A stretch of 59,601 bases of DNA, the filler included, from Squatina squatina (Eukaryota): assembly GCA_031763465.1 (NCBI GenBank). It is 4 parts of 3 records of this genome, joined end to end, with 100 filler letters (N's around TTAATTAATTAA, not from the genome) between each part and the next. Parts side by side here need not be neighbours in the genome. Positions count along the whole stretch, not along the records: positions 1 to 15,345 come from JARFOE010000016.1; 3 more parts are not named here. One strand, given 5' to 3'. A program made the position numbers and the translations under genes. The notes under the pieces were generated by a model, which did not search any database, was not told the origin of the DNA, and saw only the letters and a list, made by a program, of their open reading frames with translations. Each line of letters starts with the position of its first letter. The first letter of the stretch is position 1. This document shows, in pieces, positions 1 to 56,799 of this stretch.

Positions 1-351
1 CAACTCCACTTTCCTCCTGCTGACCATATCCCTTGATTCTTTTAGACTTTCTCAATTCTTCCCAAACACCCCCCGCCCCTCACCTCCCAGTCATCACTTG
101 CGAGACTCTGCCTCTGTTGAGGGGTCTCATAAAGGTGGCGCTCATGGCTACTGTGCAGCTGGTTGTCATTTAGATGTAGTGCTTTAAGAGTCTGTGCAGT
201 AGGACAGTGGGATTCCTGCAAGGAACAAAACGAAAACCTTTTTTTGAGTATGTGGAGAGCTGCTATTTTCTATTAACTGTGTACATCTAGTGTTCCTATT
301 TGACCCATCAAAATTGCACATTAACATGAGTCAGTTTTATGGCTAACCCAA

Positions 352-570
352 AAGCAGAAAAAACTGCAGACGATGGAAAGTGAAACTAAAAGTTGTGGAA
401 ATGCACAGCAGGTCAGTCAGCCTCTGTGAAGCGGAAAGATAGCTTTCTGTGTCAGGTTTAATCCCTTCATCAGAACCCTAAGGAAGGGTCTACACCCAAA
501 ACATTAACCGGTCTTTCCCCTTTCCAGATGATGACTGACCTGCATATTTCCAACATTTTCTGTTTCTATT
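352..570. mobile_element. Two degenerate Penelope-like terminal repeats in inverted orientation
   Basis: Left arm (~352-475, GCAGGTCAGTCAGCCTCTG...CCCTTCATCAGAAC) matches the reverse complement of the right arm (~478-570). Both resemble the repeats at 905-1170. Confidence 0.65.
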
Positions 571-619
571 AGTAAGGATTATAGTTCTCACTCCAAAGTG
601 TATTACATAAAAATATAAA

Positions 620-885
620 GTGGTTACAACACAGAAACAGACCACATGCACCAAACAGTCTTAATCACGTTTACCCACCCTGTTCCCATATCCCTTGATC
701 CTCTATTCCTTCATCCACCTATCCAATCTCAACTTAAACATAGTTTCTGCCTCATCCACTATCCCTGGAAGTGAATCCCACAGCCTCACGACTCTCTGTG
801 TGAAGAAGTCTCTCCTGGCCTCTGTTCTAAATCTCTTATATTTAATCTTGTATCTCTGGCTCCTCTTTCTAGACCCTTCAACCAC
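620..885 (-). mobile_element. CR1-clade LINE 3' fragment
   Basis: Minus ORF RFRTEARRDFFTQRVVRLWDSLP...FKLRLDRWM is a typical CR1 ORF2 C-terminus, followed by the 3' UTR. Confidence 0.9.
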
Positions 886-904
886 TGGTTCTATCTACAA
901 AAGG

Positions 905-1420
905 CAAATACTGCGGATGCTGGAAATCTAAAATAAAAACTGAAAATGCTGGAAATACTCAGCAGGTCAGGCAGCACCTGTGGAGAGAGAAATAGAATCA
1001 ACGTTTCAGGTCTGTGACCTTTCATTAGAACCTTCTACAGAAACGAAATACTGCGGATGCTGGAATCTAGAATATAAACAAAAATGCTGGAAAAACTCAG
1101 CAGGTCAGGCAGCATCTGTGCAGAGAAAAACAGAGTTAACGTCTCGGGTCGATGACCCTTCGTCAGAGCTGAAAAAAAGCCAGAAATGCAGCAGGTTTTC
1201 AAGCACCTGCAGGAGCAGGGAAAGGGGAGGGGAGGAAAGATTAGTGATTGGGTGGAAGGCAGCGAGTTTTGGTAGATACCTGATCAAATACGAGGAGGGA
1301 AACATAAAGCAATGAAGATGAACAAGGTAGAAGAGACAAACGGAAATCCCGTCTGAGGGAGGAGCAGAACTTCAAGGTGGGCATTCCTGGAAGAGAAGTG
1401 GCAGTGAATTAAGAGATGAC
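905..1420 (-). mobile_element. Internally deleted Penelope-like element with tandem terminal repeats bearing hammerhead-like motifs
   Basis: Two direct copies (905-1032, 1046-1170) of AAATACTGCGGATGCTGGAA...CAGCAGGTCAGGCAGCA...GACC. The minus strand carries CTGANGA/stem/GAAAC-like cores. A short minus ORF from 1384 (MPTLKFCSSLRRDFRLSLLPCS...) resembles a recalled PLE ORF start. Confidence 0.7.
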
Positions 1421-1460
1421 CAGTCAGCAGCAATCTCCACAAGTCATTGCTGACCAAGCA

Positions 1461-1679
1461 GATACTCCATTCTCATATCAACACACACGCACGGATACTC
1501 CATTCTCGTCTCAACACGCGCACACACTCCATTCTCGTCTCAACACGCGCGCACACACTCCATTCTCGTCTCAACACGCGCGCACACACTCCATTCTCAT
1601 ACACACACACACGCACACACTCCATTCTCATACACACACACACGCACACACTCCATTCTCATACACACACACACGCACA
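1461..1679. repeat. Minisatellite, ~30-33 bp unit, about 7 copies
   Basis: Core ACTCCATTCTC repeats, each followed by (CA)n/(CG)n-type spacers. Confidence 0.9.
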
Positions 1680-2491
1680 GGCAAGATGAAGTTTGTGATA
1701 TTAGAATTTATTTTGAACTTACTTTTATGACATCATTGATATCGATCCTTCCATCATTGTTTTCATCCAGGGATTCAGCAATCTTTTGTAATTTGTGCTG
1801 TGGGATATTCNNNNNNNNNNNNNNNNNNNNNNNNNNNNNNNNNNNNNNNNNNNNNNNNNNNNNNNNNNNNNNNNNNNNNNNNNNNNNNNNNNNNNNNNNN
1901 NNNNNNNNNNNNNNNNNNNNNNNNNNNNNNNNNNNNNNNNNNNNNNNNNNNNNNNNNNNNNNNNNNNNNNNNNNNNNNNNNNNNNNNNNNNNNNNNNNNN
2001 NNNNNNNNNNNNNNNNNNNNNNNNNNNNNNNNNNNNNNNNNNNNNNNNNNNNNNNNNNNNNNNNNNNNNNNNNNNNNNNNNNNNNNNNNNNNNNNNNNNN
2101 NNNNNNNNNNNNNNNNNNNNNNNNNNNNNNNNNNNNNNNNNNNNNNNNNNNNNNNNNNNNNNNNNNNNNNNNNNNNNNNNNNNNNNNNNNNNNNNNNNNN
2201 NNNNNNNNNNNNNNNNNNNNNNNNNNNNNNNNNNNNNNNNNNNNNNNNNNNNNNNNNNNNNNNNNNNNNNNNNNNNNNNNNNNNNNNNNNNNNNNNNNNN
2301 NNNNNNNNNNNNNNNNNNNNNNNNNNNNNNNNNNNNNNNNNNNNNNNNNNNNNNNNNNNNNNNNNNNNNNNNNNNNNNNNNNNNNNNNNNNNNNNNNNNN
2401 NNNNNNNNNNNNNNNNNNNNNNNNNNNNNNNNNNNNNNNNNNNNNNNNNNNNNNNNNNNNNNNNNNNNNNNNNNNNNNNNNNNNNNNNNNN

Positions 2492-2660
2492 GTGTGTATG
2501 TTTTGTGTGTGTGTGCGTGGTGTCTGTGTGTGGTGTGTGTCTGTGTAGTCTGTGTGTGGTGCGTGTGCGTGTGGTGTGTGGTGAGTATGTGTGTGCGTGT
2601 GTGTGCGTGTGTGTGTGGTGTGTGGTGTGTGTGGTGAGCTGTGTGTGTGGTGTGTGTGTT
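2492..2660. repeat. Degenerate (GT)n microsatellite
   Basis: Seen directly, abutting a gap. Confidence 0.9.
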
Positions 2661-2664
2661 GATT

Positions 2665-2930
2665 TCGCTGAGTGCTGGATCACGCTCATCCATTTTAATC
2701 CCACTGGGGCCCACATTCTCACCACTCTTTGGATAAAGACACTTCTCCTGAATTTGTTATTGGATTTATTACTGACTATCTTATATTAATGGCCCCTCGT
2801 TTTCGACTCCCCCACAAGTGGTAACATCTTCTCTACGTCTATCCGATCAAACCTTTTCATAATCTTAAGGACCTCTATTAGGTCATTTCTCTGACTCCAC
2901 TTCTCTGGAGAAAGGAGCCCTAGCCTGGGG
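2665..2930 (-). mobile_element. CR1 LINE fragment
   Basis: Reverse complement matches CR1 ORF2 C-terminal sequence also seen at 41215-41540. Confidence 0.8.
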
Positions 2931-3439
2931 CCATATGTTCTGCATTGGCTCGAAATCTGCTTCTAATCTGTTGATGGAGGGAGGAAGTGGGGTGAGTGGG
3001 GGAAGGTAATGAAACAAAACAGGACTGGGAATAAATCGTGCCAGCCCTTGTCGCTGCAGCTGCCAGGTATCCAATCCTCGGATTTATTCAGCAGGTACTT
3101 TGCAAATGTAATGCTTTTCTGTGGCTGCCTATATTCTGTAATTCCATTCATTAAAGATATTTATACAGCCAGTTAAGCTTCGAAGCCTGTTCGGAGTTGG
3201 TTTGTCGCCCAAGGGCATTCACAGATACAAGACTGTGCCGGAGAAATCACAGATGATGATATATATCGAGCAGATAGACCACTAATATTTCAAACTGCTT
3301 GGATCAGTTATGGTGTCATTTCATTATAGAGTCTAATCTTCTGTTTACAATTCAGGAGCCCATCCCCTGACTGCAAATCAACAGTCAATAAAACAAAATA
3401 AAATTCCCAGATCTCTGTGCTCCTCGAATTCTGTCCTCT

Positions 3440-3850
3440 TGAGAATGGGAACGGAGTTGTGGTCAGGAACAAGGACAACGGCTTTGATCTTCCCAATATT
3501 TAGTTGGAGGGAATTTCTGTGCACACATTACTGGATGGAGTCTGACAATTTAGAGACGGTGGAGGGGTGAAGGGAGGTGTTGGTGAGGTAGAGCTGGGTG
3601 TCGTCAGCGTACACGTGGAAACTGACGCTCTATTTTCGGATGATGGCACTAAGGAGCAGCATGTAGATAAGAGATAGGAGGGTCAAAGGATATACCCTTG
3701 GGGGACACCAGAGATAACTGTGTGGGAGCGGGTAGAATAGCCACTGCAGGTGATTCTCTAGCTACGATTAGATAGATAAGAATGGGACCAGGCGAGTGCA
3801 GCCCCGCCCAGCTGGACGACAGTGGAGAGGCGTTGGTCAAGGATGGATAA
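3440..3850 (-). mobile_element. L2-clade LINE reverse transcriptase fragment
   Basis: Minus strand encodes SGVPQG...SFHVYADDTQLYL (YADD motif), with frameshifts and stops. Confidence 0.85.
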
Positions 3851-4099
3851 CTTCACTACTTTTCAATTCAATCCCTCGAGAGATAAACCCTGGTGCCTGA
3901 TTTGCTTTTCCTTGGCCTTGTTAACCTGTGTCAATGCCTTTAGTGATGTGTGTATTTGTCTCCCAGATCCCTTTGCTCCTCTACCCCATTTAGAATCTTA
4001 TTTTCCAAGTAAAGGTGACCTCCCTATTTTCTGTACCAAAATGTAATACCTCATCTTTACCAGTGTTGAACTTCATTTGCCAATTATATCAGGTAACAT

Positions 4100-5045
4100 G
4101 AGAACCAGGAAGGGAAGGGATGGTCAGCAGTTTAGCGGGAATAGGGTCAAGGGAGCTGGACTTGGTCTCATGGCCAAGATGACGTTGGAGAGGGCAAGAG
4201 GGTAGATCGGAGAGAAACTGGAGAAAGATGCGAATTCCGGGCTAGGCCCGGGGGAAACATAGAGGAAGTTTGGCCCAGTGGACTGGGGGCAAGACAGGAA
4301 GTGGCAGAGGCAGCTGATTGGATGGTCTCAACCTTAATGATAAAGAAGTCCATGAACTCCTTGTTGTCGGAGGTAAGGGTGGAAGAGGCAGAGGAGAGGG
4401 GTTTAAGAAGACGGTTTGTAGTAGAGAAAAGAAGCCGGGAGTTATCTTTGCATTCCAGAATGATCCTGGAATATTGAGCAGTTTTGGCCGACGAGAGCAG
4501 GATCTGATAATGCTTTATGTGATGCAGCCAGACCTGGTGGTGAATGGCTAAACCAGTTGTGCGCCATATCCGTTCAAATCTGCATCTCTGCGACTTAAGG
4601 GAGCGAAAATGAGGGTTGTACCAGGGGAAACAGCCAGGGTGAGAGAAAGCAATTGTTTTAATAGGGACTAGGGCATTAAAGGTGGTGGTGAGGGTGTGGT
4701 AGAGCAGATCGGTAGCTGTAAACATGTTGGGGTGAATGGAGAGCCAAAGGCTCGACAGTTGGGATTTTGAAAGTTCAGTTGTAAGAGTATTTGGAGAGAG
4801 TTTTTTTCCAGGGGTGGACACAGAAGGAAGTAGGGTTGGGTGTGAGGGGGAAGGGGATGTGGCTGGAGAACTAAACAAGGAAGTGATCAGAGATGGCCTT
4901 ATCTGTGATTGACACAATGGGAGTAGCGAGGACAGGTGAGATGGCAAGGTCAGTGGGTGGCTGTGAATATGGGTTGGGGAGCTTACATGGAGGGAGAGAT
5001 TAAGGGAGTGTGGGAGGGCAGTGAACTCAGAGGAGAGAGGGCAGA
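4100..5045 (-). mobile_element. L2-clade LINE ORF2 fragment (endonuclease-RT linker)
   Basis: ORF 4168-5127 contains PWYNPHFRSLKSQRCRFERIWRTTG...AQYSRIILECKDNSRLLFSTTNRLL, typical of the L2 linker region. Confidence 0.85.
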
Positions 5046-5514
5046 CGTGATGGGCTGAATGGCTTTCTTCTGTGCTGGAAAATGATATGATTCGATGAAA
5101 TGAAGAAGAGTGATTAAGCGATGCCACAGTTGGGTTTTACATGTCTTTCAGATGTAGGAGGAAGGGAGCTGAGGAGTCCCACAGTTTGCAGCTGCTGGGA
5201 AAGGCTTGAGTTATCACACCCAATTCCTGATGTTGAAAATACAATTGCCTTCACCGTCTGCACCATTAATTAGATTTTGATCCACTCCTTTATTCTGGCA
5301 AATCCAGAGAAGGCAACACTTTGCCAGGAGAGGCGAAATAGAGCTTTGAACAATTTTGAGCGCTAAAACAACCATAATCTCAATGGAGATGAAATGCTAA
5401 GTGGAGCTCAGTGTTGGCTCTTCATTACTGTCCCACAACCCATGAAGGATTAAATTAAATAATGCAGTGCCAGCTAACTAGAATCCTTTCTGTAGCTCAC
5501 TGTCAGTATCCATT

Positions 5515-5920
5515 CTGTCAACCGTGGTTCAGTGGGTAGCGCTCTCTACCTCCGAGTCAGAAGGTTATAGGTTCATTGCCCCACTTTAGAGATTTGTGCA
5601 CCTAATCTAGGCTGACACTCCAGTGCAGAGCTGAGGGAGTGCTGCACTGTCTTTCAGATGAGGCATTAAACCAAGGCCCTGACTGCCCTCTCAGGTGGTT
5701 GTAAAAGATACAACAGCACTATTTTGAAGAGGAACAGAGGAGTCCTCACCCGGTGTCCTGGCCAGTATTTATCTCTCAACACTCATCACTGAAATGGAAC
5801 ATCTGGTCATTTATCTCATTGCTCTTTGTGGGAGCTTGCTGTGTACAAATTGGCTGCTGCATTTCCAGTGACTACACTTCTAAAGTACATCTTTTGCTAT
5901 AAAGTGCTTTGGGAATAAAT
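5515..5920 (+). mobile_element. tRNA-derived Deu-domain SINE (SacSINE1-like)
   Basis: tRNA-like head, Deu-domain-like TTTCAGATGAG...AAACCAAGG...CCCGGTGTCCTGGCCA, and an L2-type tail (AAAGTGCTTTGGGA). Confidence 0.8.
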
Positions 5921-6232
5921 TTCTTTCTTTCTTTCTTTCCTTTTCTTCTCTCCTTCTCTCTTTCTCTTTCCTCTTTTTCTTTCTTTTCCTCTTGATTTAA
6001 TTTTCCTCTTTCTATCTCAAGGGGGCAGAGTACTTCAATACCACAAGCAGCAGGATCACTAATAGCAAGAGTGAGCCTCCAACTATTGGATCATTTGCCT
6101 TCCTATCGCTTGACTTTGCATCCCTTGATCCCACAGCCAATGTACTTTTGAAGAACAGCCACTTCTGTATTGTAGGAAACACAGCAAGTTCCCACAAAGA
6201 GCAATGAAATAATGACCAGATAAACTGTTTAA

Positions 6233-6469
6233 ATAAGAACATAAGAACAAGAAGCAGGAGTCGGCCATTCGGCCCCTCGAGCCAGCTACCCCATTCAACA
6301 AGATCATGGCTGATCTTCTGCCTCAATGCCATTTTCCTGCACTATTCCCATATTCCTTGATTCCCAATACTATCTAAAAATCTATTGACCTCAGTCTTGA
6401 ATATATTCAATGACCGAGTCTCCACAGCCCTCTGGGGTAGACAATTCCAAATATTCACCACCCTCTGAG
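6233..6469 (-). mobile_element. CR1 LINE 3' end
   Basis: AAGAACATAAGAAC...GCAGGAGTCGGCCATTCGGCCCCTCGAGCC is the reverse complement of the shark-type CR1 tail. Confidence 0.85.
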
Positions 6470-6569
6470 NNNNNNNNNNNNNNNNNNNNNNNNNNNNNNN
6501 NNNNNNNNNNNNNNNNNNNNNNNNNNNNNNNNNNNNNNNNNNNNNNNNNNNNNNNNNNNNNNNNNNNNN

Positions 6570-6687
6570 AAGCAGGTACGGGGTACTGAGTTGAAAGATC
6601 AGCCATGATCGTGTTGAATGGCGGTGCAGGCTCGAATGGCTGAATGGCCTACTCCTGCACCTATTTTCTATGTTTCTATGTTTCTAT
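6570..6687 (+). mobile_element. CR1 LINE 3' tail
   Basis: GATCAGCCATGATC...GAATGGCCTACTCCTGC...(TTTCTATG)n tail. Confidence 0.85.
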
Positions 6688-6784
6688 GACTACACTCCAA
6701 ACCTACTTCATTGGCTGTAAAGCGCTTTGCGACGTTCAGTGATTGTGAACGGTGCTGTATAAATGCGAGACTTTTTTTTTGCTT

Positions 6785-7025
6785 TCCTGACTCCTTACTG
6801 GAATAAGATTCCACAATTGCCGGTCGCTCCTCCTCGCCTAAATGGGCATTGTTCACCTGTGGGGCCGAGACAGTGAGTGTCTGCGGGCTATTTAAACGTG
6901 GGGGTATCACTGCTGAGTCAAAGTCCTGACCTTGCCTGACATGCATACAGTTCCAGCAGGGGTTTGACAGCGAGCATTCTACAGCAGGGACCCCTGACTG
7001 AGATCCTCTCCCTGACATAGGCCAT
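6785..7025 (-). mobile_element. Old SINE-like repeat fragment
   Basis: Reverse complement is similar to 56990-57345 and 23775-24050. Confidence 0.55.
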
Positions 7026-7644
7026 TTCCAGTGCTTCCATGTCAGCATCAGCCAGGGAAGCAAACCTTGCGAATGTCCCAGCCTTTTGGTGAGGCTACAC
7101 ACCGGGAGAGCTCAACGAGCTGGGAGAAGTGGGAGCCGGAACAACACACCTTTAAAAGAATGCTTTTGCATTCAAGTCTCAGATCAAGGGCAATGGTTCC
7201 TTTCCCAAGCAGAGTGTTGTTGTGAGATGAGATTTTCACTGTGCCCAGCTGTAGCTCATTGAGAGCGAGACAGGGGCTGATCAAAGCTGACAGGGCTGGT
7301 AATGTCAGGGGCTGTGTTATTAACTCAAGTGCATGGCAATGAACTGGTGAATGACACTGGCCTTCCTCTTGGGTCAAGAGAGGAGGGGAGATAGGTATGT
7401 AAACGCTGATTGAGAGCAAGATGGGTTTGTGTGGAAGGACACTGGGAGAGGATTGCAATTCTCGGCTGTGATCACATGACCAGCCACTGCTGGTTTGAGA
7501 GACATTAGAGGTGTGGGAATGTTTTGTAAATCATGCGACCAAAACATATATCCCTGGCGTTTAGATCTGTTCAAATAACAATCACATCTTATATACAGCT
7601 GTCAGTGGGTAACACTCTGAGTTAGGTGAAAGAAAGTCGTGAAA

Positions 7645-7750
7645 GAAAAATAACAACAGGAAACGCTGGAAATACTCAGCAGGTCAGGCAGCATCTGTGG
7701 AGAGAAACACAGTTAACATTTCAGCTCGATGACCCTTCGTCAGGACTGGA
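7645..7750 (-). mobile_element. Penelope-like terminal repeat with hammerhead-like motif
   Basis: Near-identical to the 905-1170 units. Minus strand reads CTGACGA-A-GGGTC-ATC-GAGCT-GAAA-TGTT-AACT. Confidence 0.75.
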
Positions 7751-7869
7751 CTGTCATCTCTACATCGCCTTTCACAACCGCAGAACATCCCAAAGCCCTT
7801 TGCAGCCAAAGAAGTACTTTTAGAACTTAAGTCACTGTTGTAATGTAGGAAATGTGACAGTCAACTTAC

Positions 7870-8090
7870 CCCCAATCCAGAGACTTGAGCACAACAGCTA
7901 CACTGATACCCCGAGCGTGGTACGGAGGGAGTGCTGCACTGTTGGAGGTGCCGTCTTTCGGATGAGACATTAATCCAAGGCCCCGTCTGTCCTTTCAGGT
8001 GGACGTAAAAGATCCCATGAAGAAGGGCAGGGGAGCTTTCTCCGGGTCCTGGGCCAGTAATTATTCCTTAAACAACACCATTTAAACAGA
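7870..8090 (+). mobile_element. Partial Deu-domain SINE
   Basis: GGAGTGCTGCACTGTTGGAGGTGCCGTCTTTCGGATGAGACATTAA...GATCCCATG, shared with 14680-15130. Confidence 0.8.
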
Positions 8091-8476
8091 TTCAGGGCGA
8101 AAAAGTGAAATTCGGCAAGGTGAGGCGGCGACCTCACCGGCCGGGTAATTCCCCCGGGTGGGGTGTGGGGGGTCCCAAAGGCACAAGGCCTTTGCTCCTC
8201 TGCCAGGGCCCGCCACATCATCAAAAGGTGCGCCGACCCCCTACCGCCCCACCGCGACCCTTCGTAACCCCCGTTGTGCCTGCGGGTGAAATTCCCCCAC
8301 GTGACGCGAGGCCATCAGCTGTTGGTGGCAACCACAGCTTGAAGCTGTCATTGCCACTGCCTTTTAAATGGGAGGANNNNNNNNNNNNNNNNNNNNNNNN
8401 NNNNNNNNNNNNNNNNNNNNNNNNNNNNNNNNNNNNNNNNNNNNNNNNNNNNNNNNNNNNNNNNNNNNNNNNNNNN

Positions 8477-8720
8477 TCATTATTTACTCCATCAGAAACT
8501 CTCATAATTTTTCAACACCTCTATTAAATCTCCCCTTAACCTTCTGTTCTGTAAGGAGAACAACGCCAGCTTCTCCAGTCTTTCCACATAACTGAAGTCC
8601 CTTTGGTCATTCTGGTAAACCTCCTCACCAAGGCCGTGACATCCATTCTAAAGCATGGTGCTCGCTATTGTGCGCAATACTAATACTCCAGCTGAGGCCG
8701 AACCAGCGATTTATGAAGTC
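8477..8720 (-). mobile_element. CR1 LINE fragment
   Basis: Reverse complement resembles the CR1 RT C-terminal region (LEY..Q..AP motif). Confidence 0.7.
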
Positions 8721-9364
8721 TTACTCCTGTTCCTATTGCAGCACACATGTCACCATTCCTGCGGAAGTAATCTCAAGCTCATTTTTTAATAAGCTGATCC
8801 GTGGCAAACAGTGGGAGATCCTCTGGCTGCGACAGAGCTGATTCCTGCGGGGTAAAGCTCACCAAATATATGTAATGACAGAACACGATTAAAAATATGT
8901 GTTCAAGTTAGTAATTCATTTATATTTAATTAGAAATGGATAGAATTCCATGCACGCAGCTAACAATATATCAGTTCAAAATCGTTTTTTCTTTTTTGAG
9001 AACAAACATGGAGTCCTCCCCAGAGGGGCAAGGGCGAATATTAACAAAAATTGAAATCTAATGATACAATAGGATTAAAAGAGTATTAGCACTTAGTAAT
9101 TCATTTAGATCTCATTATAAATGGATGGAATTGCATACGTGTAAGTGACAAATATAATTGGTTTTGCACAGTTAACTCTCTGAGGCTCGATCCCCAGTGC
9201 AGGAGGCAGGCAAGCCTGGCCTGAACATTCAGTGAAAAAAACATGTTTCCGTGCCGATATCTGCAGATTTGGAGTAGGCCGAGAGTCAGGGAGTGGACAT
9301 TTCATCGGCAAAGAGCATCACGCCCGACTTCTGACTCAAAGCCATAGAGAAAGACCTTGCACTT

Positions 9365-9756
9365 ACATAGCAAAATAATCCAAAAGGCTGAAGGAATGCT
9401 GGCCTCTATATCCAGAGGATTGAATACAAGGGGGTGGAAGTTATGCTGCAGCGATACAAAGCCCTGGTTAGACCACACCTGGAGCACTGGGAGCAGTTCT
9501 GGGCACCACACCGTAGGAAGGGTATATTGGCCTTGGAGGGAGGGCAGCACAGGTTTACCAGCTTGATACCCAATCTCCAAGGGTTAAGTTACGAGGAGAG
9601 ATTACACAAATTAGGGTTGTATTCCTCAGAATTTAGAAGGTTAAGGGATGATCTGATCGAAGTTTTCAGGATATTAAGGGGAACAGATAGGGTAGATAGA
9701 GAGAAACTATTTCCACTGGTTGGGGATTCTAGGACTAGGGGGCATAGTCTAAAAAT
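9365..9756 (+). mobile_element. CR1 LINE ORF2 C-terminal fragment
   Basis: YKALVRPHLEH..QFWAP...LSYEERLHKLGLYSSEFRRLRDDLIEVFRIL...SRTRGHSLK. Confidence 0.92.
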
Positions 9757-9959
9757 NNNNNNNNNNNNNNNNNNNNNNNNNNNNNNNNNNNNNNNNNNNN
9801 NNNNNNNNNNNNNNNNNNNNNNNNNNNNNNNNNNNNNNNNNNNNNNNNNNNNNNNNGTTTATGTGTCCATTGATCGTGCCTCTGTGAAGTGCCTTGGAAT
9901 GTTTTTCTACGTTAAGAACACTGTATAAATGCAACTTCTTGTTCTTGGTGCCGATGATG

Positions 9960-10910
9960 ATGTGTGTCCAAGCCTGGTTGGTGTGTGATTCGGATCTTGG
10001 AGGTTGGAGGCGAATTACTGACAATTACAGCAATCAAGAGTCACCATTGATAATGAGTTAAAAATAATAGTTCAGGAGAGATGTGAGGTAAGGCCGTGTT
10101 ATGCCAGCCAGCCTTCATAATACATACACTTAATGTCATTACAGGAGACAGTCTGCATGACTGAGAAGTCGGTTGAAAATCATTGGAAAATTGATAAACA
10201 GCCCCAGGTATGGGGACAATACAGCACTGATTGCAGATTTAAAAGTGAGATTACACAAGATACTTGATGAGGTAAATCAGGCAAGTTTTGGAATATTGAT
10301 TGAAATTAAGTGGCAAGAAGATAAAATCAATGATAATCAAGAAGAGAGAGGAGCTCCTAAACATTGACCTTAAGACTGAGAAATAGAACGAGAGGTGAAT
10401 CTGTTTACTGGGGTAGACAAGTAATATCGGAGAGTCAAACTAACAAAGGAATTAAATGGGGAATAGGAAGTGGAAAAAGGATGTATAACAACATGTAAGA
10501 GTTTCTACACAACCTCAATATCAAACTGGTGATAAGCAGTTGATGGTCGGGAGTTGTGTGCCATCAAAGGCATCATCCTGATGTGACAATGGGACCTTGA
10601 ACACGGGACTAAGAGGCCTGGAGGGGATTGAGTTCTGGTGCCACAGACATCTCTTGAAAATAGGCTGAAGGAGTAGAACAACTAATGAGATGGTCCTTGA
10701 ACCAGGACAATGATGGAGAGAAGTGACGAGGCTGATCATGATGAGAAAGATGACGGGTACAGGGGAAGTTGTCGAGGTTGTCACTCTCTGCAAAAGATGA
10801 TGGTGATAGATCAAGAAGGAAATGGGGAACCTGGTTGGATGGTGTGATGGATTGGACAGCTGTATTGTTATCTGTTCTGAGACTGGGAAGAATGAAGTGC
10901 GTTGCTCCAC
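9960..10910 (+). mobile_element. Highly decayed RTE-clade LINE (RT and C-terminus)
   Basis: INSPRYGDNTALIAD resembles the RTE motif INNLRYADDTALIA. A downstream GDRSRRKWGTWLDG resembles the RTE C-terminal R/G-rich W.D motif. Confidence 0.6.
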
Positions 10911-11149
10911 TGGGGGGAGAAAACACATGGAGAATGAGGGAAAGTCAGACAGAGAGAGAAAGATAGAGAGAGAGAGAGATCTAACTCGCCAGACGGGGAG
11001 CCCACAGGATCGGGTGGAATGGCGGTTTTACCACCCTTCCCCCGCCACGTGACTCCAATAGAGTGTAAAATCTGGTGAGGGAGTAAAACCAGCATCGCAC
11101 CAACCCCGTCAGTTACCCGAAGGCCAGTTAAGTTAAAATTGCTCCCATT

Positions 11150-11328
11150 GTGAAAGAGAAAGAGAGAAAGAGGCTGAGAGAAACAGAAAGATAGAGAGAT
11201 TGAGAGCGAAAGAGAGACAGAACGAGAGAGAAAGAGTGATTGAGAGAGAGACAGAGAGAGTCAAGTTGAGTAAAACAAACTGAGGGAGAGTGACAAACTG
11301 AGAGATAAAGAAAGAGACATAGAGAAAG
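11150..11328. repeat. Degenerate (GA)n tract
   Basis: Seen directly. Confidence 0.9.
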
Positions 11329-29641: not shown

Positions 29642-29741
29642 NNNNNNNNNNNNNNNNNNNNNNNNNNNNNNNNNNNNNNNNNNNNTTAATTAATTAANNN
29701 NNNNNNNNNNNNNNNNNNNNNNNNNNNNNNNNNNNNNNNNN
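29642..29741. other. Artificial scaffold spacer N44-TTAATTAATTAA-N44
   Basis: Identical to 15346-15445. Confidence 0.97.
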
Positions 29742-32700
29742 GGACACTGGAGAGACTGACTGGCAACCATCAAACTACATCACAGAACATCATTTTGAGC
29801 ATGGAATGGGGATAATAATTTTATGTGCGACAGAATTTTGGACTTGAAGAAAATTTAATTGAATTGAAATAAATGTCATACAACTCACTGTATTGAACTT
29901 AGCAAACAGCTTGTTATCTGGCTCTCTCTAATTAGGAAGAGGAATGTGTATTGACTTTCCCGCCTCTTCTTTGCTCCACTATTAAGCTTTAAAGAGGAAA
30001 GTACGGCTCAGAAAATGTAGAAGTGCCTGCAGTAGCGTAGAGCTCAGATTTGGTTTATGTGTGAATTAAATCCTCCTGATTCCTGGTCTGGGTTTTTTTT
30101 TAAACGAATTTCTGTAGATCTATGACAATAAAATAAATACAGGTGAACTTAATGGGAACGCTCATTTTATGGACACTGTGCTATTGTTCTATCTCCCTGA
30201 TTTGATTTGATCTCAGTATTACGATGAAAGTTAATTATGGGAATGTACTTACTCGACCAAGAGCACCATCAAATATCATTACTTTTCCTTTAGGGATAAC
30301 TGGTATATTTAAAGTAAGTATCATTCCTCACATGATTACTTGGAATAACGTTGCTCCTCTCCCTATATTTCTATATTCATGACTTTTTTGGGTGGACATG
30401 AAGCTCTGTGTAAGCTTGAAGAACCTGAAAATGCATATTATTTAAACGGTCTTTCAATTCTAGTCATGAACAAGATGAATAATGAGATATATAGACTAGA
30501 GTAGGTATAGATAGTGAAGATATTTGTTAAATCAATTAGATTTAAAGTCTAATTTACCTCAAGCCAATAAAATAGGTTAGGCATACTTGGCAATTTGCCA
30601 CTCCTGAAGGATAGGGAAATAGTAATAGAGTCACTTTTGATGGAACTTATAAATGTCTTTTAGAGAGTCTTTTGATTAAAAAAGAAGAGTAATTATCATC
30701 ACAAACTAGGGGTAGCCAAAATGAACATGGCCTGATCCTCTTATGAAATCTTATGAAAACCTTGGGCAAAAAAGTGCCAAGTAGAATAACAGCCATTTTT
30801 ATATCCTCTCTAACTCTATCAGCACCGATGAAGCTCTAGTTGAAATGTGTGTGCAACAAAAATAGACATAAAGGGGAGGCATCTATATAAGCTACATTTA
30901 CTGGAGTAATGATAGAAAAGATCAAATCTGGTCTTGGGGCTAATCATACTGAAGTCACAACTTATGAATTTCTTAGGAAGAAAATTATAGTCAACAGCAA
31001 CTTGCATGGTTACTGATTAGGCAAAATGATATGGTCCAGAAATGAGCAGAAAATGGAAAGTATGCTCAAAGTAGAGGGAAGTGGATTACTCATCAGTCAA
31101 ATTGCTGGAATTGTAGGATGACTGCACACCAATAGAAATGTGATGAAGTAACCTTCTAACATTGTAATTCTGATCTACATAGCACTGACAAACTGAGTTA
31201 GTCTATGCAGGTAGCTAGCAAAGCAATTGAGATGATACATCACTGTTACAAAAAGAACTGAAGGTTTTTCTGATTAATAGTCTCCACCCAAAACGTAAAC
31301 TGATTTGTTTTTCCTGTCTTTNNNNNNNNNNNNNNNNNNNNNNNNNNNNNNNNNNNNNNNNNNNNNNNNNNNNNNNNNNNNNNNNNNNNNNNNNNNNNNN
31401 NNNNNNNNNNNNNNNNNNNNNAAAGCATATGCATTAGCCACAGTGCATCTTATCACCAAATACCTTACATTTGGCATGTAACAGGGATACTAAAATGGTA
31501 TATAATTTGATCATTTAAGGTATTTGTTTTTCATCATAAAATGTTTGGATGTCATCGCATTTAATTAGACGTTATGGAATGTACTCTCCCGGGCCTCTTC
31601 TATTTCTTCAAATCTCTTGAGTTACCCAAAGAAAGCTATGAGCCTGGGGACTTTAATCAGAACAGAAGCAGAGATGAGTCATACACTCTTGGAATGGATG
31701 TGTAACAGGCAAATAGATGTAGTTGTAATTTGTCAGTTGTGGTCTTTAGTGGGATGTATGCTTTTTGCATACTATGTTTTGTGGTCATGTAAATTGGTGC
31801 ATGCAATTTCCCTTTTCTAATTCTTGTCACTGTCAAGTCAATTTCATATATCCAGTGCTCTCTTTTGCATAATTAAATTAGAAGTTGAATAATGCAATAC
31901 AATGCAGCAGAGGAGATTTTGTAATTTAAAAGAAAAGTATTTCAATACAGATTTATTAATTCTCAGATTAGAGCTTTCCTGATCGCTCAACANNNNNNNN
32001 NNNNNNNNNNNNNNNNNNNNNNNNNNNNNNNNNNNNNNNNNNNNNNNNNNNNNNNNNNNNNNNNNNNNNNNNNNNNNNNNNNNNNNNNNNNNCCAACGTC
32101 TCTGCATTTCAGTTCTATTTCTCCAGAAATTACCCCCAGTGCTTTGTTTGCATTCGTTTTGGCCTTGTTACCTGCAATGCTGCTTTTAAAGATTTGTGAA
32201 TCTGTACCCCTAGAACCAGTTGCTCCTTTACCCCATTTAGACTCATCCTTCCCAAGGAGTATATCGCCTCCTTATTCCATCTATCAAAATACACCACCTC
32301 ACATTTTTTATATTAAAATTCTGTCAAATAAAGATGAAGGACTCTTGAGCAAAAACTGAACACAGTTGGTGGGAGTATAGTTCCCCTCTAGTGATTCTCC
32401 TACACAAATCCTCTTATCCACCCTGCAAACTAGCATTGCTGCACACAGCTGTTCTCACCGATAAGGTCGATGATTTACAGCTATTCATAGCACACCAATA
32501 TTAAAGAAATCTATCATTTTTTCCCCCCTTTTCTATGCATTGTCTTTATAGTGTGTGTATAGTGGCTGGATGTATTTTAAATAACATTAAGCTGAGATGT
32601 AAGCTGCTGGGAATTTTGTGCTCAATGTTTTTCCACGTAGGCGCCATGATATTCTCCTATTGACTAAAGAGATTTAAGTCTCAGTTATCCTTTGAATTGT

Positions 32701-45909: not shown

Positions 45910-46010
45910 TATTAAAACAAAAAGAAAATGCTGGATATACACAACAGTTTCTTCAACAGCTGAGAGATAAAGACAGGTTTATGTTTCAGACGAGACCCTT
46001 CAACAGAACT
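45910..46010 (-). mobile_element. Decayed Penelope-like terminal repeat
   Basis: GAAAATGCTGGA...GTTTCAGACGAGACCCTTCAACAGAACT, similar to 905-1170. Confidence 0.55.
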
Positions 46011-46389
46011 GCATGTTGGGCATGTTGTCAGTTTTCAATAGACCCATCAATAATACATACTACGGTAATGAGTGCCTTCTATCTCACCAAAGAGAAACTG
46101 TCTATAAATTTAATAATAGCATTTGAACGGTCAGTTAGGAGCTGGGGAAGTGTGGCAAAGAGGGATGTAATGAGGCGAAACAGGTCATTTACCATCAGCA
46201 TGGCCAACATCTGCTGTCAGGTTTCAGATAATGTAGGATGAAAGGCACTGTATAAAATTCTTTTAGTGCAGATCACAGTTATGTGTGCTGACTGATACAC
46301 AGGGTTATAGAGGCTCTATTTTCAGCAACTACTTACAATGCAAATTAATAAATGCCGTTGACAAGATACAAAGAAGCATAATTAGGACC

Positions 46390-46489
46390 NNNNNNNNNNN
46401 NNNNNNNNNNNNNNNNNNNNNNNNNNNNNNNNNTTAATTAATTAANNNNNNNNNNNNNNNNNNNNNNNNNNNNNNNNNNNNNNNNNNNN
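46390..46489. other. Artificial scaffold spacer N44-TTAATTAATTAA-N44
   Basis: Identical to 15346-15445. Confidence 0.97.
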
Positions 46490-51650: not shown

Positions 51651-53377
51651 TGGAGGCAACGCAAAGCTAATTGCAAGAACCAGAACCTGATGCATGTTCC
51701 TCCTTGTACCCTTTCCAACCCAGGGTGAATGGACCATAGATTGCCAAAATTCAGAATGTACTCCTCCGAATTGGGCTTACAGGACACCGAGCAAGGACAC
51801 CATTAGAGCAGCTAAGAATCAGAGAGTGGCTACCAGGAAATCCTCACTGCACCACAAACTGAGGATTTGCATTTTTACAGCACAAGATGAATAGTGTTTA
51901 GCAAGCCAACAGCACTATTAGGCGATTGTTGTGATTTGCTGCCACAGCTAATGAGGCTGCAATGATTATTGAATTAATTGACCATCTTTCAACTACACCA
52001 GTGATGAAATCTATTATTTATATTTGATTAATGGGGAAAATACAAATCAACACTTATTGCTGTAATGCGATAAACCTATATTTAAGCTGCTCCTATTAGC
52101 ATTTGATGTTATCTCGAAAGCGCTTCGCTATCTGTGACAATCCATTAAGAAACAGGCTTAGTGAGGCTTTATTTAACTATTACAGTATGAGGTCTCTCTT
52201 CTAGAGTGGTACAAAGGTATGTTCTTGTTCCTCTTTAGCTCCAAATATACCATTCGACAATCTCTCCTCTTCCTTACATCCTCACTGTTGAAATTAAAAC
52301 CCGCCACATCATTTCTTAACCTAACTGTAGAGAGTGCTACCACTGAGCCAAGACTGACACCAAATCAATCAAATTGCACCACTACCCATAGACACAATTG
52401 GGGGATCCTAGCCTTTGGCTTTTTCCAACCTGTACTAAGTTGTTTATTTGTAGGTAATTGTACTGTGTCCCCATGGGGAGAGTGTATGCTCTCCATGTTG
52501 GCACTTGGCACTCTACATGTGTGAATTTCTCAGCAGTTTGGTTTGGAGACAGAAGTCCAGTGACTTGTTTCCAACTGATCCAAAAAGGAAAGCTGGGAAT
52601 GATGCTCCACTGAGGAACAAAATGTGGAATGGCGTATGGCATAGTGGCTCATGATTGGCACAGAATTGCATGAATTGACATTCTAAACTCTGAATTGGCG
52701 AACTGAATGATTGATTGTGTTGCTTCCAATTGTTGATCCTATTTATACCACAAAGATTAATAGGTCTAATTTGGAAATGTTTACAATACACTCNNNNNNN
52801 NNNNNNNNNNNNNNNNNNNNNNNNNNNNNNNNNNNNNNNNNNNNNNNNNNNNNNNNNNNNNNNNNNNNNNNNNNNNNNNNNNNNNNNNNNNNNGTACTTC
52901 TAAAGCACTTTGGGATGTCCTGAGGTCACAAAAGATGCTTATCTTTCTTTAGCTTCCTACGAGAGTGAGATTGTGCAAAGTAGAGCGTCAGGTTATATTT
53001 GTGCAACGTTACACCTGGAATGATGTTGATTCGTGTGCTCAAACACCCTTTTAACAAAAAGGGGAGAATGTCTGTTTCAAGAATTAAGGATTCAATAAAC
53101 AACATCATGGGAATTCGCAGCTACAAAACATGCAATTTTTGAGCATGCAATTTCATTAACAATTTGTCAATTGTGGAGAAAAACAGGTATTCTCCCATTT
53201 CATGTTAAGAGCAATTTAATTGTGGTTGCGTAAAATGGGAAACTCCTCTGTTCCATAATGCAAACATCCCTTAATGGGGGCAAATATCTGCCTTTAATGG
53301 AGCAGGATGGATATATTTTCTGGTCTGCAGCACCAATAACCTTTAAGAGCATCCTCAACACTTTAACATCCTCTTAC

Positions 53378-53662
53378 CAGACAAAACTTGAAGGTCAGCA
53401 TCATTTCCAGTTCTTGAGCTTCCAGGATTTTCTGCCAGGCAACGGTAGGACCCACCATCCCCTGCCTGAAGCTTGCTGATCACCAAAGATCCAGAGGGAA
53501 GAACAGCCAGGCGGGTGTCATCAGCACTTAGCTTCAGATCATTGCGGTTTTTCTGCCAATGAATGGAAGGCATAGGCTCACCAGTAACTTCACATTTCAG
53601 TAGGGCAACGTCTCCTGCATAAGCAGAGGCTGGCTCTGTCTGTGAGATGAATCTCAGTGGAC
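53378..53662 (-). CDS. DCC: Netrin receptor DCC, second Ig-domain exon (285 nt, phase 1-1)
   Basis: ttttctag|[43 protein letters not shown]...[41 protein letters not shown]|gtaaga compared with recalled human DCC [39 protein letters not shown]...SSRTGNEAEVRILS. Confidence 0.93.
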
Positions 53663-54319
53663 CTAGAAAAAAGGGACAGATATTTATTAGACATTGTTAA
53701 AAGTTGATGGCTAAAGGTCAAATTTTGCCATCACCGTGATGGCTGATATGAGGCTTATTGGCTGTAGTTAGCACCTGTGTTATTGATTGCAGTGGAGCAA
53801 TGTTTGGAATTTAGTGGCATTGTTAGGTGTATTCATTTCCCAAATGTTCAATGTATTTTTAAAGTTTATAATACATTTAAAAGATAAAGTGAATTCTGTA
53901 TTTTATAGTAATATTTGATTGTCAGCCAATTCTTGGAAGTCACATGGCCTAATTCTTGGCAGTCACCTGATCAATTCTTGGAANNNNNNNNNNNNNNNNN
54001 NNNNNNNNNNNNNNNNNNNNNNNNNNNNNNNNNNNNNNNNNNNNNNNNNNNNNNNNNNNNNNNNNNNNNNNNNNNNNNNNNNNAAACATTGCTTGAAGAA
54101 CATTTAATTGTGAGTTCTGTTTAATTGCATATTCCAAAGGGGAACATAATGTTTAATGGTAAGTGAATTGTGTAGCTAGAAGCATCTCACTGTCAGTTGA
54201 CTACTTTCCTCCCTTCCTATAATTAAACTTCAGAGAAAGACATATAATGAATAATACTTTTACTGCATAAAATGGAATGCAACTCACAGGGCTTCCATAT
54301 ATCCTACAGCAAGCCAAGC

Positions 54320-55610: not shown

Positions 55611-56519
55611 TTTCATGGAACTTCAGTCGAAATAAAAAATGGGAGAGATATAAAACAGGCTGCTTATTTCCTATCTTACACTGTTGCGCAAAGTCAAAAT
55701 TACTCCCATTGTGCGAAACATTAAGAGACATGTTGAGCTAACAAGGTACTATATCAATGGAAGTGTCATTTAATCTCCCAGGTGATGAATTACTGAAAAC
55801 GCTGCTCACTCCTCATTCCAGTTTGCTATTTTCATTTGAAGTTTTCTCGTATTGTGTTTTCTTTAATGATTGTTAATGCTTCAATATCATCTGATTGTGC
55901 TGTGTTAATAATATATTCCTCCAGCGTGAAGGTTTAAGTCTACAATTAAGCACTAAACAGCTAATTACTACTTGATGGTGACATGTTTTTTTACCCAGTA
56001 AAGTGTAATTATCAACCGTTTTACAGAGCAACCGATACGAATTATACAAAACAAAGTTCCTTTTAAGGCAGGGTGTGACTCAGCATCAGCATGATGTATT
56101 TTCAATCAAGCAGCATATAATTAAAATAAATCACTGTTTTGACTAATTAATTTCTCTAGTCATTGTGCCTTCCAGTTATCATATAATTTGTTCACAATTT
56201 TAAGTCTATTTGGATTAAGGATTTAATTATTAAAAAACTAATCTGGCAAATGGATAAATAAGATTTAGTCAAATGGATTTGTGCTTTAAGGTAACTCTGT
56301 TGTGGACCAATTTCAGATCAAGCGGAAAAGGGCTCAGCAAGGAGAGTGGGGACCTTAAAATGATCAATGGCAAACAACTGCAAAAAAAATGTTCTGAAAA
56401 ATGGAGAGTCAGGCACAATGAAAGCAGAGATCGTCTTCAGATGTCTTCTGATGTCAGTCATCGATGCTCGACTGTGGCAGATTTTTGCTCCTGAACTGAC
56501 AATTCCAAGCCTTGTGGGA

Positions 56520-56799
56520 TTTGTGGCTGCAGAGATAGTGGATACATTGGTTGTAATCTTCCAAAAATCCTTAGATTCTGGAGAAGTACAGGAGGATTGG
56601 AATATTGCCAATGTGATACCCTTATTCAAAAAGGGTGGGAGGCAAAAAGCGGGTAACTATAGGCCGGTTGGCCTAATGTCTATTATTGGAAAAATATTAG
56701 AATCAATTATTAAGGATGTAATAGCAGAACATTTGGAAAGTCATAATCTGAACAAGCAGAGTCAGCATGGCTTCATGAAGGGGAAATCATGTCTGACAA
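56520..56799 (+). mobile_element. CR1 LINE RT fragment
   Basis: IFQKSLDSGEVQEDWNIANVIPLFKKGGRQKAGNYRPV...SQHGFMKGKSCLT. Confidence 0.92.

Follow-up and report, generated by a model that had tools for sequence, protein, structure and literature searches.

The genome of Squatina squatina (assembly GCA_031763465.1) contains two adjacent units that resemble the minimal hammerhead ribozymes (min-HHRs) of Penelope-like elements (PLEs). The questions raised by this locus are whether these units are ribozymes of such an element and whether they are arranged to fold as a dimer, as was proposed in a sequence-only reading. The window, i.e. the whole stretch of DNA that was analysed, comprises 59,601 nt, of which positions 1-15,345 come from JARFOE010000016.1. 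Features are located on the minus strand unless otherwise stated.

The family consensus was deduced from public contigs of related organisms or samples aligned to the locus. These runs represent relatives, the best word share with the window being 0.25 among the 24 runs listed. Four of the 24 runs (X1, X3, X9 and X15) were aligned to 880-1300, and three of those four to 1100-1480. The repeat family is very abundant, with 44,296 of 31.4 million records aligned in X1, 63,271 of 26.5 million in X3, 6,984 of 5.4 million in X9 and 5,488 of 0.93 million in X15. The percentages given below for these runs are shares of depth and not copy counts.

Identification of two minimal hammerhead motifs

The reading of both units on the minus strand was confirmed from the sequence. 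Unit A (1134-1170) is a minimal type I hammerhead whose 5' part consists of AGCU (1170-1167), CUGACGA (1166-1160) and an extra A (1159). It is followed by stem II (1158-1154/1150-1146) and by a 3' part composed of GAGA (1145-1142), CGUU (1141-1138) and AACU (1137-1134), with a predicted cut between 1138 and 1137. Unit B (996-1032), also a minimal type I hammerhead, is composed of GGUU (1032-1029), CUAAUGA (1028-1022), an extra A (1021), stem II (1020-1016/1012-1008), GAAA (1007-1004), CGUU (1003-1000) and GAUU (999-996), with a predicted cut between 1000 and 999. The C3 positions of A and B are 138 nt apart. Both units display the unpaired base between positions 9 and 10.1, a paired stem II and, as had been described, a helix III represented by the loopless palindrome ACGU.

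The one core substitution announced for each unit is indeed present: A14G at 1143 (GAGA for GAAA) in A and G5A at 1026 (CUAAUGA) in B, the latter belonging to a subfamily with the pair A10.1-U11.1. Stem I of A contains a C.A mismatch (1168/1136), and the weakened stem I of B consists of three wobbles and one U-A pair. The proposal that the flanks form stem I is thus only partly retained: they are paired in the majority of the family but damaged locally in both A and B. Core changes such as A14G and G5A abolish hammerhead cleavage. Hammerheads A and B are likely inactive at this locus, as had been guessed: each core carries one change and the family majority is intact.

A min-HHR descriptor allowing one core mismatch gave three matches in the window (A, B and an AT-rich match at 30961 on the plus strand, which is probably due to chance) and none in 30 of 30 first-order Markov controls. 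A degenerate motif recovered two matches in the window (A and the copy at 7712-7743) and none in 100 shuffles, the descriptor and this motif having both been designed after the motif had been seen. Rfam scans of 1-6000 and 960-1200 detected no hammerhead family with E values up to 10; this was expected because the motif lacks a helix III beyond the palindrome, and no weight was given to it. The folding z-scores of the motifs are not significant (-0.88 to -1.34). For these reasons, the case rests on the conserved core and not on folding energy. The monomers are predicted to pair the core onto the palindrome in 77% of the ensemble for A and 53% for B.

Conservation of the ribozyme in the family

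The residue A14 (position 1143) is conserved in 99.1%, 98.0%, 99.97% and 95.0% of the depth in X1, X3, X9 and X15, respectively; judged from these contigs, the local A14G is a rare deviation from the family. In stem I, the U at 1168 (AGUU with AACU) is conserved in 98.5%, 91.5%, 99.9% and 100% in the same runs. The family form of stem I is AGUU/AACU, with a U-G wobble in most of X9. The C-to-U change of B at 997 is a minority form (family letter 86-98%), whereas the G that it has at 999 predominates in X9. The residue N7 is only C or U among the rows shown, U representing 12%, 76% and 4% in three runs. No variant row was found for G5 at 1164 among the 40 rows listed, and the consensuses of loose ends in X3 and X9 contain an intact CUGAYGA. 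On these two grounds G5 would be the majority letter and the local G5A is probably rare too. The B-type stem II associated with an intact G5 is also a loose-end consensus in X3.

Position 11.1 is a U in 67%, 85%, 16% and 86% of the depth in X1, X3, X9 and X15, respectively, and otherwise a C. The A10.1-U11.1 form, like that of B, is the consensus of a loose end of 115 contigs in X3. Across the runs, the closing pair of stem II is observed as G-C, G-U and A-U. The palindrome is lost in 4-11% at 1140 and in 12-22% at 1002, both losses being of CpG type.

None of the six copies of the window (described below) has a fully intact ribozyme. The first two positions of stem II are paired in all six, and 87% of the stem II cells are paired over the window copies, in comparison to 19-52% over both helices in slid controls. 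Covariation over the six copies does not beat shuffles (the value is reached by 244 of 500). The covariation of stem II claimed from A and B is seen as three states of the closing pair across the runs, but the comparison of A with B gives a single pair and the six window copies are not significant.

The family consensus keeps CUGANGA...GAAA, with GAAA at 95-100% of the depth in all four runs. The assignment to the minimal type I hammerheads of the Penelope kind is upheld, the family majority having an intact core and stem I that match the published consensus (U-rich flank, CUGANGAH, stem II, GAAAN, palindrome and UH; supplement of PMC4209133). A further subfamily, with a stem II of 4 bp and a loop of 4 nt, appears in X9 as a loose end at 1173 (29 contigs), and copy D (478-500) fits this form.

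Copies in the window and their ends

Six copies of the family, A to F, are present in the window. Copy A (1036-1255) comprises a pyrimidine-rich upstream part, the hammerhead, the body and a tail of ~30 nt; it was delimited from contig pieces (1104-1240) and from the alignment with B, and its 5' boundary is approximate (1240-1260). Copy B (896-1030) measures 135 nt and extends from the 5' edge of the hammerhead to the tail (896-930), the family contigs reaching 896-899. A linker of 5 nt (1031-1035) separates the end of A from the start of B. Copy C (349-477), older and with a tail, is placed head-to-head with copy D (478-570, plus strand), also older and without tail, whose C3 abuts the 5' strand of stem I of C. 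Copy E (7647-7748) has no tail and its upstream flank comes from another repeat family. Copy F (45913-46011) is decayed and without tail.

The tail of ~30 nt is thus found in three of the six copies (A, B and C), and D, E and F stop before it. In the contigs, loose ends are piled at 931/932 (890 contigs in X1 and 1,419 in X3, the pile at 931 being inflated by clipping at a local variant at 930) and at 906 (428 contigs in X1). Part of the tail duplicates the sequence before it, with a 9-mer recurring at a distance of 29 nt (896-960), and folding predictions pair the tail with the part of the body that follows the ribozyme. The head-to-head junction of C and D (462-488) is located exactly at the 5' edge of the ribozyme, with imperfect arms of 11 nt and a spacer of 4 nt. 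Opposite-strand joints of the family are also seen in the contigs.

In five of the six copies (all but A), the 5' end lies no more than a few bases from C3 instead of at the cut site. The alignment of the 60-nt upstream flanks of B-F with that of A is no better than with shuffles (p 0.21-0.81); copy F shares 8 nt with the upstream part of A and may extend further. Among the listed classes of loose ends, the heterogeneous ones at 1167 are the most numerous in X1 (331 contigs) and of the second tier in X3 (179, behind 274 and 227 at 1139-1140), these counts being inflated because contigs are clipped at the 1168 variant. None of the six loose-end rows listed per run corresponds to the cut site (1137). 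In X9, the depth drops six-fold, from 173,444 at 1168 to 28,434 at 1180, and the contigs differ by less than 1% from the window at 1168-1180; diverged subfamilies could mimic such a 5' boundary.

No target-site duplication is evident by inspection around Z-A-B (Z being the segment that precedes A, see below). The search of a 19-nt motif of the body in metagenomes gave 15 loci, all of them chance matches without the unit, and scans of viral and prokaryotic genome contigs with the hammerhead motif gave no match in either.

The segment Z and the likely start of the open reading frame

Two loose ends of X9 delimit the segment Z (1261-1412). The loose end at 1412 leads directly into the tail (8 contigs, agreement 0.9), and the one at 1261 prolongs the open frame (6 contigs); therefore Z is what normally follows the tail in the family. 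This segment contains an acceptor-like CAG (1387-1389) and a frame of 41 codons (1384-1262) with its ATG at 1384. The 41 codons are 86-88% identical to P0002, a gene model of the horn shark, over its residues 73-114, and the residues that come next in P0002, FHSHISFLS, are those encoded by the X9 loose end (FHSHIS). The frame of Z likely represents the start of the ORF of the element, and we take it to resemble the N-termini of PLEs. The order hammerhead, tail, ORF-like start is observed in the family. P0002 is a chimeric-looking shark gene model of 205 aa, without RT/EN, and is the only real homolog of the Z frame; the family is assigned to sharks because of this match.

No longer relatives of the residues 74-153 of P0002 were found among 49 candidates, an Atlas search gave no usable match, and the supplement of PMC8557442 gave no peptide or shark match. 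A second protein, P0003, was rejected as a homolog: it is a repeat protein scored over nine stretches. A frame of 44 codons starting in the core of B was also discarded as the ORF start, having no homolog among 15 candidates and being broken in A.

No RT or GIY-YIG protein linked to the family was retrieved in the protein and homolog searches, and the membership in Penelope consequently rests on the architecture. The optional tail of ~30 nt, the head-to-head pair and the ORF-like start after the tail make this membership likely. The units are not terminal repeats flanking an ORF at this locus, which contains end fragments and the likely start of an ORF. Judged from this arrangement, the lack of a flanking pair of pLTRs lowers the case for a full element here, but not for the origin of the family.

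Three acceptor-like sites (a pyrimidine tract followed by AG) are observed at 1169-1180, 1113-1130 and 1385-1399. The first is located at the 5' strand of stem I, the second comes 25 nt past the cut site, and the third, where P0002 apparently joins the Z frame, immediately precedes the ATG. In the Penelope element of D. virilis, the 3' boundary of the intron falls at the 5' end of helix I (PMC4209133).

Comparison with the hammerheads of known Penelope-like elements

The min-HHRs are known from PLEs of fish, coelacanth, frog and reptile (PMC4209133). The shark family shares with the metazoan min-HHRs of that study the type I form with a short stem I, the U-rich 5' flank, the CUGANGA followed by one unpaired base, the stem II of 5 bp, the GAAA and the loopless ACGU of helix III, together with the occurrence of mostly single dispersed copies from truncated elements and of close pairs on opposite strands. 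The association of A10.1 with U11.1 is found also in the family Latimeria(2) (PMC4209133). In contrast to the min-HHRs of this source, the closing pair is often G-U or A-U here instead of G-C, the local shark copies are mutated and the ORF is known as a start of 41 codons only. No shark appears among the examples in the part of the PMC4209133 supplement that was searched, and no shark-specific description of such hammerheads was found in the literature searched. An optional tail of 30-40 nt, partial tandems and inverted 5'-truncated copies are described as PLE traits (PMC8557442, PMC3846280). Here, they correspond to the optional tail, the A+B tandem and the head-to-head inversion of C and D.

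Functional data are provided by the Poseidon element PAc of Anolis carolinensis, in which two RT start sites flank the tail (PMC11167929). According to this source, the Anolis PLE hammerhead cut only when the PLE protein was added, catalytic hammerhead mutants still inserted in vitro, and no reads ended at the cut site, the unprocessed RNA being the main substrate. As in PAc, the shark hammerhead is placed shortly upstream of two 3' ends separated by the tail, and an uncut main substrate fits with shark copies that include the ribozyme over its full length. In PAc, stem II is where the ORF begins (PMC11167929), whereas the likely ATG of the shark family follows C3 by ~165 nt and is preceded by the tail and by an acceptor-like site.

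Proposed mechanism and role of the ribozyme

Taken together, these data make it very probable that A and B are decayed min-HHRs in end fragments of an abundant, likely Penelope-like family of cartilaginous fishes, for which we infer the following mechanism. RT would start either ~100 nt or ~130 nt past the hammerhead, producing 3' ends that lack or include the tail, respectively. It would copy mostly uncut RNA and would often run off just 5' of the ribozyme, leaving copies of ~100-135 nt, of which B is an example. Copy A, with Z, would stem from another subfamily and have landed beside B in a second insertion. Cleavage after GUU in an active element would require that the ACGU palindromes of two units pair with each other, and a protein would probably assist it. 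At this locus, both cores have decayed. The starts of the copies at the 5' edge agree with the Anolis result, in which the unprocessed RNA is the main substrate and the ribozyme needs the protein. The shark family may use the same RNA-processing strategy as the known PLEs, as had been proposed.

The identity of the family is left unchanged by a second reading that differs only in the mechanism. In it, the hammerhead is conserved without a need for dimers, either as a protein-assisted monomer or for protein binding or translation, and cleavage plays no essential part in transposition. We regard this reading as a reasonable possibility, although not the favoured one. The behaviour of the Anolis hammerhead (protein dependence, insertion of the mutants and absence of reads at the cut site; PMC11167929) points in this direction, as do the copies starting 5' of the ribozyme instead of at the cut and the predicted monomer fold with the core paired to the palindrome. 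However, the palindrome is conserved apart from the CpG-type loss seen at 1140, a conservation explained by pairing in dimers, and dimers and trimers of the Schistosoma min-HHR cut weakly when monomers did not (PMC4209133). Pairing between units is kept in the preferred mechanism.

The segment Z together with A (1412-1036) measures 377 nt and extends from 7 nt past one tail end to the next tail end. The interior of the ORF is missing from it, and it looks like one gutted copy of unit length. A circular-template intermediate of PLE transposition has been proposed (PMC4209133), and the locus could be imagined as a fossil of PLE RNA copying, in which 1412-1036 would result from one RT pass round a circular RNA produced by hammerhead cleavage and re-ligation, and copies B-F would mark the 5' end of uncut RNA. 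We consider this improbable: a linear multimer, a later deletion or chance would equally give Z and A, no listed contig piece of the three runs bridges the Z/A junction, and a single locus is concerned. If it were true, copy ends taken genome-wide would directly test the proposed circular intermediate. With the present finding, a ribozyme class that was already described is recognised in one more fish lineage, which adds little. The question that it touches is the in vivo role of the PLE hammerheads. So abundant a family records the ends of its RNA in its genomic copies, and mapped 5' ends (ribozyme edge, cut site or tail-to-tail) could reveal an uncut, cut or circular template.

A different origin, from a non-autonomous SINE-like element or from the end of another class of retroelement, with the resemblance to a hammerhead as a passive relic or a coincidence, is very unlikely. 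The absence of a link to RT or GIY-YIG proteins in the searches, the Rfam scans without a hammerhead match, the non-significant folding z-scores and window-copy covariation and the shortness of most copies would be compatible with such an origin. Against it, the core letters are kept at 95-100% in the family, the closing pair moves between G-C, G-U and A-U without being broken, the six copies all pair the first two positions of stem II, an ORF-like frame follows the tail, and the tail and the inversion are PLE traits. The Penelope-like assignment is preferred on this evidence.

Arrangement of units A and B

The claim that the units are arranged for dimeric folding was not borne out: the two copies appear to have been inserted separately, the folding prediction for the dimer is unfavourable and both cores are changed. 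Copies A and B are identical at 111 of 135 aligned positions (82%), and they differ at N7, at loop 2 and at the 10.1-11.1 pair, the sites that distinguish subfamilies in the contigs. The extension upstream of the hammerhead is of ~240 nt for A, including Z, and is absent for B. From these differences, A and B are likely two adjacent insertions from two subfamilies. A tendency of PLEs to integrate within or beside pre-existing copies is noted in a review (PMC6765202).

A double hammerhead can nevertheless be drawn for A+B; it is nested and formable, with helix III between both ACGU and the stem I partners swapped. In a nearest-neighbour model without tertiary contacts or protein, the constrained dimer of the native A+B reaches -27.7 kcal/mol vs a minimum of -44.1 kcal/mol, i.e. 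~16 above the minimum, and the probability of the helix III pair in the native fold is ~0.001. One of the halves of the dimer carries A14G and the stem I mismatch, the other G5A.

Tandem hammerhead units related to the pLTRs of PLEs are also known in the animal non-LTR retrozymes (PMC7229834; bioRxiv 10.64898/2026.07.22.740005). In the single chondrichthyan genome that it covers, the 2026 preprint describes tandem repeats of type I hammerheads, with a mean consensus of 363 bp; it traces repeats of this kind back to pLTRs. Unlike these retrozymes, the locus contains just two unlike units of unequal extent with both cores broken, and A+B does not provide the two consecutive complete motifs by which the preprint defines such repeats. 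That A+B would be a purpose-built tandem dimer, i.e. a retrozyme-like repeat of 138 nt whose double hammerhead releases monomers or circles, is hardly probable: the head-to-tail position, the common ACGU palindrome, the formable nested structure and the chondrichthyan repeats of the preprint speak for it, but the divergence at subfamily-marking sites, the folding energy and helix III probability, the two mutated cores, the upstream extension limited to A and the use of canonical, not minimal, hammerheads by classical retrozymes (PMC7229834) speak against it. A tandem retrozyme family of ~380 nt, with Z and A repeated, was also considered and is unsupported, no listed contig piece of the three runs bridging 1240-1261.

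Other features of the window

An exon encoding an Ig domain that matches DCC (E 2e-60) is located at 53358-53696. Of the six copies, all but D have the orientation of this exon and could lie inside the DCC pre-mRNA, which for A and B would be ~52 kb downstream. Three identical AT palindromes of 12 nt, flanked by runs of 44 N (15390-15401, 29686-29697 and 46434-46445), are assembly spacer artefacts. Long open frames occur at 4171-5136, at 9392-9754 (plus strand) and at 56364-56798 (plus strand), and presumably represent LINE ORF2 fragments of the L2 or CR1 type. Finally, a minisatellite with units of 29-33 nt occupies 1454-1682, directly beyond the segment Z.
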